DNA of 40,000 nt, from the NCBI GenBank assembly GCA_963848195.1, contig CAWKCY010000002.1:58853-98852 (forward strand), written 5' to 3'. Numbering within the stretch: position 1 is the stretch's first letter; each line of letters opens with the position of its first letter. Made by a program: the position numbers and the translations under genes. Positions 6,953 to 29,932 of the stretch are shown here, piece by piece. A model generated the notes under the pieces. The model did not search any database and was not told where the DNA came from. It worked only from the letters and a program-made list of their open reading frames with translations. The DNA is from an uncultured Ignavibacteriales bacterium (GTDB lineage: Bacteria > Bacteroidota > Ignavibacteria > Ignavibacteriales > Ignavibacteriaceae).

Positions 6953-7212
6953 AAAATAACGCAAGCCGACCTTTACCCCTTCTTTACAAAAACCCCGGCC
7001 CCCATAGTATTTTCGGTTTAAATTATTTCTCCTTTTAGTTTAAATTCAGCAATTATAACTTCAGGATTATTTGTCTCATAAATTTCAATAGATTTATATT
7101 AATTGAGATTAATTTATTCTTCTCAATTCAAAAAAGATTTTAAAAAAGTAAAAAGCCAGAAGATTTAATCCCAGGGCACGTTTGCACGGTCGGGTACAGA
7201 TGCATTTTATAT
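6953..7212 (-). repeat. terminal attC (degenerate) of the mntA-hepT cassette; end of the array
   Basis: The right arm, cacGGTCGGGTAcagatgcatTTTATAT, matches the gcGGTCGGGTAgaaacgcatgGTTATAT type. The left arm, aaATAACgcaagccgaccTTTACCCC, is only partly complementary. Confidence 0.5.
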
Positions 7213-7230
7213 TGCTATTATTTAATGTGG

Positions 7231-7575
7231 CTAACTTAATATGGCTCGGATTTTATCCTTTATTTCAGGCAGGTTATTTTTAATTGCATCCCAGAGTATT
7301 TCATAATCGACATTAAAATATTGATGTATTATTTTATCTCTCATTCCGGCAATCTTCTTCCATTCTATTTCTTTATGTTCCTTACGAAATTCTAGAGTCA
7401 GATTTTTAACAGCTTCTCCTATTATTTCAAAACTTCTTGAAAACGCTCTCGTATACATCTCATTTTCAAGAAATGAATTAAAATTAAGATTTTCTGTCGT
7501 TTTTAACAAAAATACAATTTCATCCAGGATATGTCTTAAGTATACTTCGTTATGCTTCATACCACTTAACTTCAT
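7231..7575 (-). CDS. hepT: HepT (DUF86) toxin of a type VII TA pair
   Basis: 114 aa with the RxxxxHxY motif (MRDKIIHQY). Overlaps the upstream nucleotidyltransferase gene by 26 nt. Confidence 0.85.
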   Translation of the reverse strand: MKLSGMKHNEVYLRHILDEIVFLLKTTENLNFNSFLENEMYTRAFSRSFEIIGEAVKNLTLEFRKEHKEIEWKKIAGMRDKIIHQYFNVDYEILWDAIKNNLPEIKDKIRAILS

Positions 7576-7849
7576 TATTTATATAAGGAAGTATATACGG
7601 GCTAATCCCCTTTTCAGTTAAAAGATCCACTTTTCTATTGAATATTTTTTCTAATTCAAATGCTAATTCCATATAGTTATCAAATGTCTTTTCTTCAAAA
7701 TCTACAAGTAAATCGATATCACTTTTTGAAGTCGCCTCGTCACGAATATAAGATCCAAATAATCCAATTTTTCTAACACGATATTTTTTAAGCAACTCTC
7801 GATTTCTTCGGAGGACTTCGAATATTTCTCTTGAAGATAACTTTTTCAT
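7550..7849 (-). CDS. mntA: MntA nucleotidyltransferase antitoxin
   Basis: 99 aa with the minimal NTase motif GLFGSYIRDEATSKSDIDLLV. Confidence 0.85.
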   Translation of the reverse strand: MKKLSSREIFEVLRRNRELLKKYRVRKIGLFGSYIRDEATSKSDIDLLVDFEEKTFDNYMELAFELEKIFNRKVDLLTEKGISPYILPYINNEVKWYEA

Positions 7850-7929
7850 AACATTTCTTAATTCTTTTAAGTTAAAAATAATAAAAGAATTGTAAATAAT
7901 TTACTTTTCTGTAATTTGTTTTCAAATCA

Positions 7930-8116
7930 ATATAACGAACTCTTATTAACAGGTCAATCTTTTTTCTCTTGTATGGAAGCAAGTAGACCCTGCACATAAT
8001 GGGCTAAGATACAAGCACCGAATAATCCACGTTGAACAAAGCTGATCATCTACCGCAAAAAAACTCTAAAAAATCGAATGCGTAAAATGCTGTCAACTAA
8101 AATTGCTACGTTATAC
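7930..8116 (-). repeat. attC
   Basis: atATAAC (7930-7936) ... cgaatgcgtaaaatGCTGTCAACTaaaattgctacGTTATAC (8110-8116). Confidence 0.7.
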
Positions 8117-8124
8117 CGATTTTT

Positions 8125-27595: not shown

Positions 27596-27609
27596 ACTCT
27601 TTGTTATTA

Positions 27610-28404
27610 TTAATTGTTTAGACTATAATCTCTTAATACATCTATATAATCTAAAAACCAATAAGCTTTAGGTACTATAAAAATTCTTACATCAGCAATT
27701 AAACCTATATTAGGTGCATAATAATAATAAAAGTCATCATAACCAGGATAATCTTCTGCTTCCCTTATTCTGATTCTTATTACAAAACAACTAAAGGCTC
27801 CCGCCTTGGTTTTTACAGTATCATTAACAGATATTAATCTTGTATCTAGTGGCTTAATTGAGCTAAATCCCGAAGGACCTAGAAATACAGGACGCGAATC
27901 CCAGGGTTCGTTTAAATTAAATTTTGCAGGTATATAAATATCTTTATTCAATAATGTATCGCCATTTTCATTAAACGCTCCCATACTATAAACACCATCT
28001 TTGCCAATCCAGAAAATTTTATTGAAATTAGTATTTTGATCATTTATATATGAGGCAATGATATGACAAGGATACAAAGTATCATTAAATATAATATTTG
28101 TAGTTTCAATAACTTCGCGCTTATAAATATTTGTTATATTTACGGTATCAAAATTAAAATCAAATGAATTAAAATTTTTATATATCCAATTAGTATCATT
28201 ATTACCAAAAGAGAAAGTGTAATAATTATAATTCCACCAATTACCCTTTTTTGATGGCCAGAGATAGTGAGTATAAACTTTAGCTGTGTCAAGAGTATTA
28301 TAAGATTGCATAGGAGCAACAATATTATTTTCGCATCCTGAAATAATTAGAATCGTGCTTAATAAATTTAAAAAAAGTAATGTATGCCTTAATTTTAAAT
28401 TCAT
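27610..28404 (-). CDS. hypothetical lipoprotein (first cassette)
   Basis: Start moved to MNLKLRHTLLFLNLLSTILIISGC (lipobox). The track start at 28446 overlaps the attI/cassette junction. Confidence 0.6.
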   Translation of the reverse strand: MNLKLRHTLLFLNLLSTILIISGCENNIVAPMQSYNTLDTAKVYTHYLWPSKKGNWWNYNYYTFSFGNNDTNWIYKNFNSFDFNFDTVNITNIYKREVIETTNIIFNDTLYPCHIIASYINDQNTNFNKIFWIGKDGVYSMGAFNENGDTLLNKDIYIPAKFNLNEPWDSRPVFLGPSGFSSIKPLDTRLISVNDTVKTKAGAFSCFVIRIRIREAEDYPGYDDFYYYYAPNIGLIADVRIFIVPKAYWFLDYIDVLRDYSLNN

Positions 28405-28437
28405 AATTTTTTTTATATTATTTTCTATTACTAAAGT

Positions 28438-28616
28438 GCCTAACATATTTATTGAGTTGTTTTACTATCCTTTTATTAATGTCTATATTTAGACATTAAT
28501 GTCTACATATACACATCTTTTTCCCAAATGTCTATATATAGACATATTTAAATGTCTATATATATACATTTTTCAATTTTCGAAGTGACCTCATTTAATT
28601 TCTTTTCCTAAAATAT
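28438..28616 (-). other. putative attI region with the recombination junction G|TTAGGC
   Basis: The minus strand reads ..ctcaataaatatGTTAGGCac (28444-28438). This is the first GTTRRRY downstream of intI, and no attC precedes it. Confidence 0.55.
28479..28569. promoter_or_regulatory. four tandem 18-bp palindromic operator-like sites ATGTCTA-N4-TAGACAT
   Basis: Sites at 28479-28496 and 28528-28545 are perfect. Sites at 28499-28516 (TAcACAT) and 28552-28569 (TAtACAT) each have one mismatch. Confidence 0.6.
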
Positions 28617-28970
28617 TTAAGTTACTATTCTATCTTCAAAACCTAATGCTAATATATCTTTATATGGTAACTCCCACAATTTTAATTCCCTATTCCACTT
28701 TCCACCTGCATTTTTTATCAAACTGCCTATTTTTACTTCGCCGTAATTAACTTTTACATGCAGAATCTTATTTAATTGTATTCTATCACAATTCCTATTC
28801 CAATCCTTTTCGTCTACAATTATTTCAACAGTGGTTAATTTTTTCTTCTTCTCCTCATCAATCCTATATCTAATACATATAAGCTTTTTACCGTATTTTC
28901 TCTCCCAGCTCTTTGTCCCGTTTTGACTCGGGTACAATGTCCTTTTAACTTTCATAAATTTATTTCTCAT
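28617..28970 (-). CDS. conserved small hypothetical protein between intI and attI
   Basis: 117-aa basic protein (..LICIRYRIDEEKKKKLTTVEIIV..GGKWNRELKLWELPY..), starting 38 nt after the intI stop on the same strand. Confidence 0.6.
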   Translation of the reverse strand: MRNKFMKVKRTLYPSQNGTKSWERKYGKKLICIRYRIDEEKKKKLTTVEIIVDEKDWNRNCDRIQLNKILHVKVNYGEVKIGSLIKNAGGKWNRELKLWELPYKDILALGFEDRIVT

Positions 28971-29008
28971 TGAAAAATTTCAATCTTATTTCTTACACAA
29001 CTAAACCA

Positions 29009-29932
29009 CTACAATTTATCTGCTGGACTCTTTACTCCCATTCCTCCTTTTCTCATAACATGAGTATAAATCATTGTGGTATTTAAATCTTCATGGCCAA
29101 GTAATTCCTGAACTGTTCTTATATCATAACCATCTTCTAAAAGATGGGTTGCAAATGAATGACGGAAAGTATGACAACTGCCTTGCTTTTTTATTCCTGA
29201 ATTTTTTATCGCAACTTTCACTACTCTTTGAAGTACACTTTCATCTATATGATGTCTTCGTTTCAATCCTGTCCTTTTATCTACCGATATTTGTGAAGAT
29301 GGAAATACATATTGCCAACCTAATTCTTTATTTGCATTTGGATATTTCTCTTCCAATGCATATGGTAAATAGACTCCTCCCAAGCCTTTTTTGATATCTT
29401 CATTATGTAGATTTTCAACTTTTATTAAATGACGGTTCAATTTATCTTTTATAATTTCCGGTAAAATTGTAACTCGATCTTTACTACCTTTTCCATTCCT
29501 TATATTTACTTGGTTATATTCAAAATCTATATCCTTAACTCGTAGCCTGATACATTCCATTAAACGCAATCCTGAACCATATAATAAATTCGCCATTATC
29601 CAGTTTACTCCCGTCAATTTAGTCATTACAGCTTTCACTTCAGTTTTGGTAAATACAACTGGTAATCTCTTCCCTTTTTTTGCCCAAATTAATTCTAATT
29701 TTTCTAATTCTTTGTTTAATACATGCTTATATAAAAATATTATAGCACATAAAGCCTGGTTTTGAGTTGAACTCGAAACATTTCTTTTTACGGCTAAATA
29801 ACTGATATATTTACTAATTTCATTCGCCCCAAGTAATAAAGGATGTTTTTTTTCATGAAATAAAATAAAATCCCTTATCCAATTAATATAAGTTTCCTCC
29901 GTTCTCTTACTATAATGACTAACTCTCATCAC
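29009..29932 (-). CDS. intI: integron integrase
   Basis: Tyrosine recombinase motifs ([47 protein letters not shown]). Also the IntI-specific insertion [42 protein letters not shown]. Confidence 0.9.
   Translation of the reverse strand: [307 protein letters not shown]

Follow-up and report, generated by a model that had tools for sequence, protein, structure and literature searches.

Integrons in which intI is transcribed towards attI, codirectionally with a long chromosomal cassette array, have been described in Treponema as "reverse" or "unusual" integrons (PMC4909258, PMC3607928), and the name inverted integron-integrase group is in use (PMC4889954). Integrons are also on record in Chlorobi and Ignavibacteriae (PMC9024848). 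The locus described here, in a 40,000-nucleotide stretch of DNA that was analyzed as a whole (the window), is very probably a sedentary chromosomal integron with this reverse layout, an Ignavibacteriaceae host, and 18 cassettes. On the minus strand, the order is intI, a small gene that we call orfX, four palindromes, the attI crossover G|TTAGGC, and the cassettes. We confirm the integron that the initial annotation had placed here, as well as its reading of the co-oriented intI as the minority inverted layout published for Treponema (PMC4909258, PMC3607928, PMC4889954). The annotation did overstate the novelty of the locus, since reverse integrons and Ignavibacteriae integrons are both previously published kinds. 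What goes beyond that first reading is the unusually long attCs, the presence of orfX and palindromes at the insertion point, and the IS91-type elements in cassette positions.

Treponema denticola and other Treponema spp. resemble this locus in layout, chromosomal array, and non-proteobacterial host. In contrast with Treponema, the host here is one of the Ignavibacteriaceae, the long attCs measure 189 to 262 nt (versus the 57- to 141-bp range quoted in PMC4909258), and intI is separated from the crossover by a small conserved gene plus four 18-bp palindromes, an arrangement of which we found no mention in the reverse-integron papers examined. The Vibrio cholerae superintegron is likewise sedentary, carries toxin-antitoxin (TA) cassettes, and has a family of similarly structured attCs, whose VTS is large and branched and whose extrahelical bases number two or three. 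However, its intI diverges from the cassettes rather than being co-oriented with them, its array exceeds 100 cassettes, and the VTS of its VCR is 65 nt (PMC2727003), whereas that of the long attCs here is ~130 to 180 nt, against the 20 to 100 nt that has been described.

Several observations place the host in the FCB group: PhoH, encoded in the flank, falls at ≥90% identity into a cluster with proteins of Ignavibacteriaceae metagenome-assembled genomes (MAGs), the closest IntI relatives come from such MAGs, and cassette proteins bear type IX secretion sorting tails. The FCB-like, non-proteobacterial genome suspected from the sequence can thus be narrowed to the Ignavibacteriaceae. Housekeeping genes border the array, mnmA/MoxR on one side and PhoH/carAB on the other, and a related genome (L165) shares this locus but carries different cassettes, with flank homology resuming at 6995; the term "sedentary" therefore holds. 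A second relative (L162) is 99.8% identical up to the attC at 15293 (attC10) and differs in content beyond it, while in a third (L164) 92% homology stops at 28436, the attI core, and the first cassettes differ. The chromosomal locus is thus fixed, whereas the cassettes that it carries vary among related genomes.

The intI frame spans 29009 to 29932 on the minus strand, with 307 codons from the GTG at 29932. Its product scored 444 bits against the integron integrase model TIGR02249 (cutoff, 265) but only 144 and 141 bits against the XerC and XerD models, far under their cutoffs of 335 and 330. It aligned over its full length (residues 2 to 307) with the V. cholerae integrase VchIntIA (2A3V; E = 3.4e-90), without gaps across the IntI-specific insertion (...RRHHIDES), and with the catalytic R, K, HxxR, H, and Y all present. 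By these comparisons, the product is a true IntI, as had been proposed from its IntI-only insertion. The conserved N-terminal segment KPKLIEQIKT is nevertheless encoded in frame immediately upstream of GTG 29932, and inspection of the upstream frame revealed no ATG, GTG, or TTG ahead of this N-terminus; a GTG/ATG start within the gene retains TIGR02249 positions 9 to 315. Since a canonical start codon is absent, the integrase may be impaired at present, and given that intI is also 5' truncated in L164 and wholly deleted in L165, the platform may be inactive today.

Each cassette is a separate unit, and neighbors meet at G|TT. From attI through the eighth attC, every R' is perfectly complementary, in reverse, to the R'' that follows it (8/8 junctions), as would be so for only 4 of 40,320 permutations of the same heptamers. 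When the whole window was scanned for arm pairing, every pair at or below -15.2 kcal/mol fell inside the array (11 distinct coordinate pairs, 10 of them attC termini); no pair in the 17 kb of flanking sequence was stronger than -14.5 kcal/mol. RNAalifold recovered a 16-bp stem with compensatory changes on both sides at 9 pairs, and DNA folds of the plus strand gave an R box, an unpaired spacer, and the 16-bp L stem. Two extrahelical bases lie 7 nt apart on the R''-L'' arm, an A or G followed by a T, the first being at top-strand position 16 to 17. These predicted positions match the known pattern of a G in L'' with a T 6 to 8 nt downstream, including G16 of VCR (PMC2727003), but in the type A sites the first base is an A and not the conserved G found in VCR. 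The R/L-box hairpins with an extrahelical base that had been anticipated were therefore recovered. Because the bulged T and the second bulged base (A or G) lie in the higher-coordinate, 3' arm of the plus strand, that strand is the recombinogenic bottom strand, in agreement with the earlier reading, and the cassette open reading frames (ORFs) lie on the top (minus) strand.

The array occupies 6954 to 28437 on the minus strand. Six of its attC sites exceed 200 nt (202 to 321 nt), and the default attC length limit of IntegronFinder is 200 nt. Nearest attI is attC1 (27405 to 27595; 191 nt, long type A, R'' GCCTAAC and R' GTTATAC), followed by attC2 (26663 to 26851; 189 nt, long type B2, GTATAAC...GTTAGGT), attC3 (25775 to 25830; 56 nt, a short type C variant, ACCTAAC...GTTGAAC), and attC4 (23225 to 23414; 190 nt, long type B, GTTCAAC...GTTAGGG). 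Arm pairing, folds, and RNAalifold support attC5 (22196 to 22427; 232 nt, long type A) and attC6 (19870 to 20058; 189 nt, long type B2), and attC7 (18956 to 19188; 233 nt, long type A) is the best-folding site (plus-strand dG, -32.3; z, -5.7). The distal half of the array, below ~17900, is decayed. The composite, decayed attC8 (17611 to 17931) has an R'' GCCTAAC that matches its cassette start, an R' decayed to GTAGGGT, and a type B body from ~17800; attC9 (16840 to 16894) is a type C site (ACCTAAC...) reduced to its 5' half. Further along lie attC10 (15238 to 15295; 58 nt, short type C, with a bulged G on the plus strand), attC12 (12427 to 12608; ~182 nt, long type B, R'' GTTCAAC, R' decayed), attC13 (11221 to 11296; 76 nt, short type C), and attC14 (10497 to 10584), a type A site of which the 3' half is left, with R' GTTATGT. 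The remaining sites are attC15 (9570 to 9827; 258 nt, type A with an extra VTS hairpin, R'' ACATAAT and R' GTTAGGC), attC16 (8736 to 8937; ~202 nt, type A-like, 5' arm decayed), attC17 (7930 to 8116; 187 nt, type A-like, 3' arm decayed), and the decayed, B2-like attC18 (6954 to 7212; ~259 nt, ATATAAA...GTTATTT). The last repeat, GTTATTT, lies at 6960 to 6954, so the start originally given as 6953 corresponds to the end of the last site.

These counts amend parts of the initial annotation. RYYYAAC/GTTRRRY termini do recur down to 6954, but several R' boxes deviate (among them GTTATAC, GTTATAT, and GTTATGT); instead of 15 cassettes, 18 attC sites or remnants were counted, ~11 of them structurally intact. 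Cassette ORFs lie on the minus strand in general, but three units hold a plus-strand IS91-type element or remnant. The cargo includes a lipoprotein, DMP19, proteins with type IX secretion tails, a frameshifted BNR propeller, an outer membrane protein barrel, DinB, and three TA pairs (MazEF, 9833 to 10414; HigB-like/HTH, 14348 to 14969; MNT/HEPN, 7231 to 7849).

Mobile elements that recur at attCs are known from the IS1111-attC insertion sequences, group IIC-attC introns, and ISCR1, the last of which is found next to class 1 integrons and belongs to the IS91 family (PMC8876359). In contrast to these, the elements in this array combine an IS91 Y2 transposase with an IntI/Xer-like tyrosine recombinase and are flanked exactly by GTTGRAC and GTTCAAC R boxes. 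The intact copy B (23415 to 25774, plus strand) directly follows attC3 and sits exactly between G|TTGAAC and the R'' GTTCAAC. It encodes the recombinase (23539 to 24402) and the Y2 transposase (24399 to 25565; Pfam), with matches to NF033538 (382 bits; cutoff, 125) and, below cutoff, to TIGR02249 (184 bits versus 265). Copy A (12609 to 15237, plus strand), whose end adjoins attC10, is decayed, with a frameshifted recombinase and a truncated transposase (12728 to 14324); the 3' half of the transposase has been replaced by the HigB-like/HTH pair and a partial type C site (14291 to 14344). Copy C (10585 to 11220, plus strand), which comes next to attC13, is a remnant of the transposase-proximal end with repeat families D10 and D15 and fragments of both genes. 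It is 89 to 94% identical to the L164 copies, and the public gene call of L162 has a Y2_Tnp fragment at the corresponding position. In this lineage the element lies behind a short type C attC in 7/7 cases; in other phyla (L094, L159, and L003) it lies directly at attI. Among the IS91 members in ISfinder are some that have an integrase ORF upstream. We found no report of a cassette-like placement of such elements.

A GTTAGGC junction had been noted downstream of intI on the same strand, and it is present at 28444 to 28438 (minus strand) as the attI crossover core, the exact complement of attC1 R''. Between it and intI lies orfX (28617 to 28970, minus strand), which encodes 117 amino acids (112 in the public gene call). 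The product had no Pfam or NCBIfam match, although its C-terminal half is DUF5710-like; DUF5710 was found in 18/63 relatives and also among the BFVD fold matches, and the AF2 model has a pLDDT of 87. The family comprises 1,612 cluster representatives at E ≤ 0.001 and more than 6,000 relatives, and among 120 listed, every name given by the source is "hypothetical protein." Of 80 metagenome loci anchored on orfX, 45 have intI no more than 4 kb away; in 30 of the 45, orfX comes after intI on the same strand, mostly within 100 nt.

After orfX come four 18-bp palindromes with the consensus ATGTCTAWATWTAGACAT (28552 to 28569, 28528 to 28545, 28499 to 28516, and 28479 to 28496), the last of which stops 35 nt short of the crossover. 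Putatively, they serve attI as accessory or operator sites. The consensus has four matches in 40 kb, all at 28479 to 28569 (0.24 expected). In 29/79 loci, at least two of these palindromes occur in the 300 nt that follow orfX, versus none of 132 intI flanks without orfX (P = 9e-15, Fisher's test) and none of 3,000 random windows; in a separate scan with a strict definition of the palindrome, none occurred in the divergent intI/orfX loci inspected. Reportedly (Partridge 2000, Gravel 1998), attI1 of class 1 integrons contains accessory IntI1-binding direct repeats, DR1 and DR2. In both loci, repeated elements are found no more than ~100 bp before the G|TT crossover, on the side facing intI, but those here are 18-bp palindromes with a CTAWATWTAG core and without a GTTA core, and they co-occur with orfX and not with IntI alone.

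We consider it rather unlikely that orfX lies outside the platform, as a fixed first cassette or an unrelated neighbor, with the palindromes serving as IntI accessory sites or promoter elements. Such an origin would fit the 17 orfX loci in which at least 2 kb of upstream sequence holds no intI (one of them, L105, has a decayed intI), the TA genes that precede orfX in L123, and the fold and family searches, in which DNA binding by orfX was unsupported by any fold or family of known function. However, no attC lies between intI and orfX (here or in L001) or between orfX and attI, and the close intI-orfX spacing in most same-strand loci also speaks against it, as does L165, which keeps orfX and the palindromes despite the loss of intI. 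The 132 intI flanks that lack both orfX and palindromes argue against IntI alone as the palindrome partner. Improbable, too, is the proposal that the long repeats are short attCs that took up a MITE-like or IS-derived selfish insert in the loop. The inner blocks TTACGCATTCGGCWTTTTAGAG and CTTGTTCAAC are indeed conserved in sequence across types whose stems covary, the second includes the heptamer GTTCAAC, which also borders the IS elements, and variable hairpins occur mid-VTS, but every long-family copy has the inner blocks, which are not bounded by terminal repeats or target duplications. IntI tolerates a large VTS (VCR, PMC2727003), and since the junction rule holds for the outermost R'' and R', the whole long unit recombines; even with such an origin, it would remain a functional attC.

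A once-active array with a dead integrase, altered only by homologous recombination between similar attCs and IS copies and by IS activity and retained by its TA pairs, is a more serious contender, though we doubt it. The intI start and its losses in L164 and L165, the decayed distal attCs, and three IS copies with internal deletions all fit a fossil, and the L162 breakpoint coincides with a type C/IS repeat, a place at which homologous recombination would be expected too. Nevertheless, the frame is open for 307 codons with a complete set of catalytic residues, the eight proximal junctions are perfect, and the first cassette differs from that of L164 precisely at the attI core despite a 92% identical platform. 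That a Xer-type recombinase merely sits beside unrelated REP/MITE-like palindromic repeats is scarcely credible: R boxes are short, and GTTRRRY alone occurs at chance frequency in the window (78 found versus 81 expected), but the IntI-specific model and insertion, the junction rule, the covarying stems, the one-sided bulges, the single repeat per ORF group, and genomes that differ cassette by cassette refute it.

Under the preferred reading of a reverse sedentary integron, and following the established integron mechanism, IntI would bind the folded plus strand of an attC, cut it at AA|C of the R' box, and exchange that strand with attI at 28444/28443. Replication would resolve the junction, so that cassettes would enter with their ORFs on the minus strand. 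A sigma-70 promoter scan gave fewer matches than shuffled sequences and identified no Pc; transcripts of the cassettes would originate by read-through from intI-orfX or at a promoter near the palindromes, and the three TA cassettes would stabilize the array. We infer that orfX is a component of the integron platform, most likely a dimeric DNA-binding protein for the 18-bp palindromes, where it would either aid recombination at attI or regulate the transcription that enters the cassettes. Its family comprises thousands of unannotated members that are mostly adjacent to intI.

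The strongest single argument that the ORFs below attI are integron cassettes is the complementarity of their junctions. On the minus strand, intI (29932..29009) is followed by orfX (28970..28617) and then by AT-rich, repeat-containing DNA that leads to GTTAGGC at 28444..28438. Below this point, each group of ORFs ends in a repeat with RYYYAAC-like and GTTRRRY-like heptamers (R'' and R') at its two ends. We counted 18 such attC sites or remnants in 21.5 kb, numbered from attI, and the terminal R' (GTTATTT, 6960..6954) agrees with the array start proposed in the initial annotation. 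Large arrays of sedentary chromosomal integrons are those with more than about 20 cassettes, so that this one is a borderline case. In 8/8 consecutive junctions, from attI through attC7, the R' and the R'' of the site that follows are perfect reverse complements, at 7/7 bases: GTTAGGC of attI is followed by GCCTAAC, GTTATAC of attC1 by GTATAAC, GTTAGGT of attC2 by ACCTAAC, GTTGAAC of attC3 by GTTCAAC, GTTAGGG of attC4 by CCCTAAC, GTTATAT of attC5 by ATATAAC, GTTAGGT of attC6 by ACCTAAC, and GTTAGGC of attC7 by GCCTAAC. Within one site, R'' and R' agree in AAC/GTT only. The rule arises because G|TT crossovers give the last six bases of R' to the next cassette, and when the same heptamers were permuted, only 4 of 40,320 arrangements reproduced the result. 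The distal junctions match at 6/7 or 5/7 positions or have lost one half-site, which indicates that the distal half of the array has decayed. For the cassette promoter Pc, a sigma-70 consensus and terminator scan of 28300-30400, which does not cover the promoter type of the host phylum, returned 8 promoter hits versus 12.5 expected.

Since the GTTRRRY heptamer alone was not enriched in the window, we relied on arm pairing, junction complementarity, and covariation instead. When 32-nt arms were paired for every AAC...GTT pair lying 40 to 360 nt apart in the whole window, all arm pairs at or below -15.2 kcal/mol fell within the array. These comprised 11 distinct coordinate pairs, and 10 were the termini of attC sites; in the 17 kb of flanks, no pair did better than -14.5 kcal/mol. 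DNA folds of the plus strand paired both ends of most long sites and showed two bulges on the 3' arm, one a T and the other an A or a G. An RNAalifold consensus of 11 long sites, 7 from the window and 4 from the related locus L001, gave a 16-bp stem in which 9 pairs carry compensatory changes on both sides and a single cell is broken; the two bulges fall at fixed columns. The repeats thus show the organisation of attC sites: R''/R' boxes that conserve AAC/GTT, a central spacer left unpaired, an L stem, and extrahelical bases restricted to the R''-L'' arm. Read on the top (minus) strand, the R'' of 7 nt is followed by a spacer of 2 to 3 nt (5 on the other arm), 6 bp, an extra base, 6 bp, an extra A, and 4 bp. 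On the bottom strand, the first extrahelical base, at position 16 to 17, is a G (types B, B2, and C) or an A (type A), the short type C sites bulging a G; the second bulge of the long sites is a T 7 nt past the first, always on the 3' arm of the plus strand. Given that the bulges are confined to this arm, the plus strand is the recombinogenic bottom strand and the cassette ORFs lie on the top strand. Both the hairpin folding and the strand polarity predicted in the initial annotation were therefore upheld by the folds and the consensus stem. Rfam at gathering thresholds returned zero matches in the window, so the repeats are not explained by a known RNA.

The attC sites fall into two size classes, the short type C (56 to 76 nt) and the homologous long family of types A, B, and B2 (189 to 262 nt), in which the variable terminal structure (VTS), taken as site length minus about 56 nt of arms, spans about 130 to 180 nt. 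The literature gives 57 to 141 bp for attC sites (PMC4909258) and 20 to 100 nt for the VTS (PMC4889954), and the VTS of the Vibrio cholerae repeat is 65 nt (PMC2727003), in contrast to those of the window. Six of the sites are longer than 200 nt. The default maximum attC size of IntegronFinder is 200 nt, which makes the caution about length caps in the initial annotation a reasonable one. Because attCs can measure 189 to 262 nt, with a VTS roughly twice the described maximum, parts of arrays in uncultured phyla can go undetected under such caps. Inside the VTS, two blocks, TTACGCATTCGGCWTTTTAGAG and CTTGTTCAAC, keep their sequence across types A, B, and B2 even though the stems covary. They occur in every long attC (e.g., 19090-19165 and 22330-22405), and the CTTGTTCAAC block includes an internal R''-like GTTCAAC. 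We considered the conserved block as a Bacteroidetes-type promoter (TTTG-N21-TAnnTTTG) and dropped this idea because its TA and TTTG parts vary across the three types. The 321-nt attC8 (17611-17931) looks like two fused or decayed sites, with an R'' GCCTAAC and a TGACATCC/GGATGTCA hairpin, then a type B body without an R'' of its own, and an R' decayed to GTAGGGT.

The product of intI contains Phage_int_SAM_4 and Phage_integrase domains and scored 444.4 bits against the NCBIfam integron integrase model TIGR02249 (cutoff, 265), but it stayed under the XerC and XerD cutoffs (144.5 versus 335 bits and 140.9 versus 330 bits, respectively). Residues 2 to 307 aligned with VchIntIA, a Vibrio integrase of known crystal structure (2A3V; E = 3.4e-90). 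The IntI-specific additional domain, which separates patches II and III, aligned without gaps, and the protein retains R, K, HxxR, H, and Y as catalytic residues. These scores, together with the insertion and the catalytic residues, establish the protein as the IntI that it had been taken for. Ahead of the GTG at 29932, the same frame encodes the conserved IntI N-terminal sequence KPKLIEQIKT (29933-29990), but further upstream a stop codon is reached before any ATG, GTG, or TTG; relatives of the integrase are 320 to 334 aa long. Judged from the sequence, the start codon of intI seems to have been lost, or a non-canonical start is in use. As previously proposed, intI lies upstream of the cassettes and on the same strand, with intI, orfX, and most cassette ORFs all on the minus strand; from 29932 down to 6954, this is true of nearly every ORF. 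The layout of intI, orfX, and cassettes is alike in L001 and in 30 metagenome loci. Integrons with inverted integrases form a paraphyletic group according to Cury et al. (PMC4889954).

The window, part of ENA ERZ25039495 contig_9321 (146,983 bp), is AT-rich (GC, 0.25 to 0.40), and the integron sits between housekeeping genes, namely, carB, carA, and a PIN-PhoH ATPase gene on the low-coordinate side and mnmA and a MoxR/DUF58/Bat cluster on the high-coordinate side. At 90% identity, the PhoH protein falls in a cluster with "MAG: PhoH family protein [Ignavibacteriaceae bacterium]," the closest relatives of the integrase (75 to 77% identity) likewise come from Ignavibacteriaceae metagenome-assembled genomes (MAGs), and several cassette proteins terminate in type IX secretion sorting domains. 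Together, these features identify the host as an uncultured member of the FCB group, in agreement with the initial annotation. Upstream of intI, 30410-32352 holds two minus-strand ORFs (234 and 230 aa) without a family match; since the first is 83% identical in the related locus L165, both are chromosomal genes and not cassettes.

Comparison with related genomes showed that the locus is fixed in the chromosome and that its content turns over cassette by cassette. L162, from another sample, is 99.8% identical to window positions 1-15293 and then diverges, with the break at attC10 (L162 20331), so that the two share the flank and 8.3 kb of distal array but not the proximal cassettes. The attI crossover adjoins the intI platform: homology to the 92%-identical platform of L164, from the same sample, ends at 28436, two bases beyond the GTTAGGC core, and past this point the L164 cassettes, the first one included, are unlike those of the window. 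In L165, both chromosomal flanks are 89 to 92% identical, and different cassettes occupy a 6.4-kb array. The housekeeping flanks, the same locus with another array in L165, and the similarity of attCs within the array (type A copies in the window are 83 to 93% identical) bear out the sedentary nature of this integron. IntI-driven excision and integration of cassettes are predicted, indirectly, from these cassette-wise sequence differences. L165 lacks window positions 29015-30101, i.e., the entire intI (deletion at L165 9100-9106), and L164 lacks 29733-30054, the 5' end of intI (at L164 148-153); both retain orfX, the palindromes behind it, and an array despite these deletions. The integrase is thus being lost repeatedly in this lineage, and the window copy may or may not still work. 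In L001, a MAG labelled Bacteroidetes, IntI is 75% identical and the order of intI, orfX, repeats, GTTAGGC, and cassettes is the same. Its five type A attCs are 90 to 96% identical to those of the window; type A sites (232 to 233 nt) lie at 18956-19188 and 22196-22427 in the window and at 12197-12428, 13153-13383, 13850-14084, and 19432-19659 in L001. Given the lower identity of IntI, these sites have either been exchanged between species or are strongly constrained along their full length.

The cargo is typical of chromosomal integrons. It includes three toxin-antitoxin (TA) pairs (MazEF, a HigB-like toxin with a helix-turn-helix antitoxin, and MNT/HEPN), DinB, DMP19, a lipoprotein, an outer-membrane barrel, secreted proteins with Por_Secre_tail, a BNR propeller in three frames, and a MutS domain V fragment. 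Of ten unannotated cassette proteins, PADLOC matched none to a defence system. Three overlapping minus-strand ORFs at 20065-22164 (210, 351, and 180 aa) carry BNR/sortilin repeats and Por_Secre_tail, as well as a 56-nt internal repeat family; from their sequence, they look like one frameshifted secreted beta-propeller gene in a single 2.3-kb cassette. The ORF at 15290-15640 (116 aa) contains only the C-terminal part of MutS domain V and is therefore a gene fragment, not a complete gene, and no attC was recognisable in 15641-16813. The mechanically called ORFs 26715-27323 and 19309-19974 extend 100 to 140 nt into the attC2 and attC6-7 regions; their true extents are probably shorter, since the DMP19 domain covers only residues 34 to 148 of 202.

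Three cassette positions hold an IS91/recombinase element that encodes two proteins. The tyrosine recombinase has the integron integrase model as its best NCBIfam match (184 bits, under the cutoff) and lacks the IntI insertion, and the Y2 HUH transposase scores 382 bits against NF033538 (cutoff, 125) and contains PF04986 and PF14319 (zinc-binding N terminus). Copy B (23415-25774) is intact, copy A (12609-15237) is frameshifted and has a TA pair in place of part of the transposase, and copy C (about 10585-11220) is a remnant; L001 carries one copy (17063-19427) and L164 carries two (2078-4427 and 8918-11262). The element ends in terminal inverted repeats (TIRs), TAAGCCGCAAGCG, and fits exactly between two R boxes: GTTGRAC, which is the R' of the attC before it, and GTTCAAC, which is the R'' of the long attC after it. 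IS91 elements have ori and ter ends, with a GTTC/CTTG target beside the ori end. Here the transposase-proximal end is followed on the plus strand by GTTC or GTCC, and the same bases form the attC R box. The R-box junctions could have been made by IntI, by the element's own recombinase, or by the transposase.

The attC that precedes the element is a short type C site in 7/7 complete junctions of this lineage, and the ORF in front of it differs each time. Copy B, itself divergent, is preceded by a type C site that diverges as well, and the long attC behind the element varies. We considered whether type C sites simply belong to the upstream cassettes, as their bulged G predicts, but this ordinary assignment fails to explain why type C precedes the element in every junction and varies with the variant of the element. 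Read on the plus strand, TTGAAC, recombinase, transposase, R'' GTYCAAC, short attC, and G form the canonical order of a cassette, and relatives in other phyla (L094, L159, and L003) lie directly at attI, in forward orientation, in the same order. The unit may therefore represent a cassette that entered resident attCs in reverse at their R'' box, although the polarity of the bulged G in type C conflicts with this orientation. The element is thus either a cassette-borne IS or a cassette mimic. As a mimic, it would carry its own short attC and use R boxes to enter integrons: at attI in the forward direction in some phyla, and at the R'' boxes of resident attCs in the reverse direction in Ignavibacteriaceae. 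A cassette circle with the type C attC would have the junction GCGGCTTA-GTTCAAC|GTTATAAGGG, and a transposon circle would have a TIR-TIR junction. Our literature search on IS91 elements at attC sites found nothing relevant. Placed at R boxes, this element ties rolling-circle transposons to cassette arrays, and it may bear on array rearrangement and attC movement.

The orfX protein (117 aa) matched no Pfam or NCBIfam family. An exhaustive search returned 1,612 cluster representatives at E ≤ 0.001, a profile search returned more than 6,000 relatives, and every source-given name among 120 listed was "hypothetical protein." The gene adjoins intI in 11 integrase-anchored genome loci, including 8/9 of the closest relatives. 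For orfX-anchored metagenome loci, we searched with a narrower alignment, the 52-sequence alignment being too diverse, and intI lay within 4 kb in 45/80. In 30 of these 45, intI precedes orfX on the same strand, while 9 are divergent and 6 have orfX first; among the other 35 loci, 18 have too little upstream sequence to tell and one more has a decayed intI. The AlphaFold model (pLDDT, 87) shows two small beta-alpha-beta-beta halves, and a fold search against solved structures gave no match. DUF5710 (PF18974) did not match the orfX protein of the window and scored 24.5 versus a gathering threshold of 26.5 for P0124, a compared protein; it matched 18/63 relatives at E ≤ 0.01. Fold matches to DUF5710 models in BFVD had probabilities of 0.94 to 1.0 with weak E-values (E > 0.03). 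From the predicted fold and the matches of its relatives, the C-terminal half of orfX appears to resemble DUF5710.

Directly 3' of orfX, at 28479-28569, lie four copies of an 18-bp palindrome, ATGTCTAWATWTAGACAT, which occurs nowhere else in the 40 kb (0.24 expected). Other orfX loci have the same palindrome architecture with other outer bases (e.g., TTCCTATATATAGGAA, GTTTCTNNNNNNAGAAAC, and CGATCTATTAGTAGATCG) and ATGTTR some 30 to 45 nt past the palindromes. At least two palindromes were found within 300 nt after orfX in 29/79 loci, versus 0/132 intI flanks without orfX and 0/3,000 random windows (Fisher P = 9e-15). In L024, where orfX comes before intI, the palindrome is still on the attI side. 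We infer that orfX may bind these palindromes as a dimer and act at attI, in recombination or in transcription towards the cassettes. As a putative integron-encoded DNA-binding protein that assembles on attI beside the crossover, it would be needed for attI × attC recombination or would gate transcription from the platform into the cassettes. The dependence of chromosomal integrases on their native host when they recombine attI is still unexplained (PMC8191803, PMC8946536). The integron literature that we searched contained no description of an orfX-like accessory gene adjacent to intI and nothing relevant on DUF5710. The reading in which orfX and its palindromes are a third platform component and, independently of this, the IS91/recombinase element is a cassette mimic is tentative and somewhat less likely than not.

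Taken together, these results confirm the initial observation of a sedentary integron in reverse layout and support its interpretation. Since reverse integrons (PMC4909258, PMC3607928, PMC4889954) and integrons of Chlorobi and Ignavibacteriae (PMC9024848) have already been published, the kind of system is known, and this FCB integron with a reverse integrase is one more example of it. Of specialist interest are the very long attCs, the R-box-flanked IS91/recombinase elements, and the orfX-palindrome module. The latter would add a third component, unrecognised until now, to many environmental integron platforms, and the orfX family, very large, unannotated, and equipped with its own palindromic sites, is a candidate integron-encoded accessory or regulatory factor.
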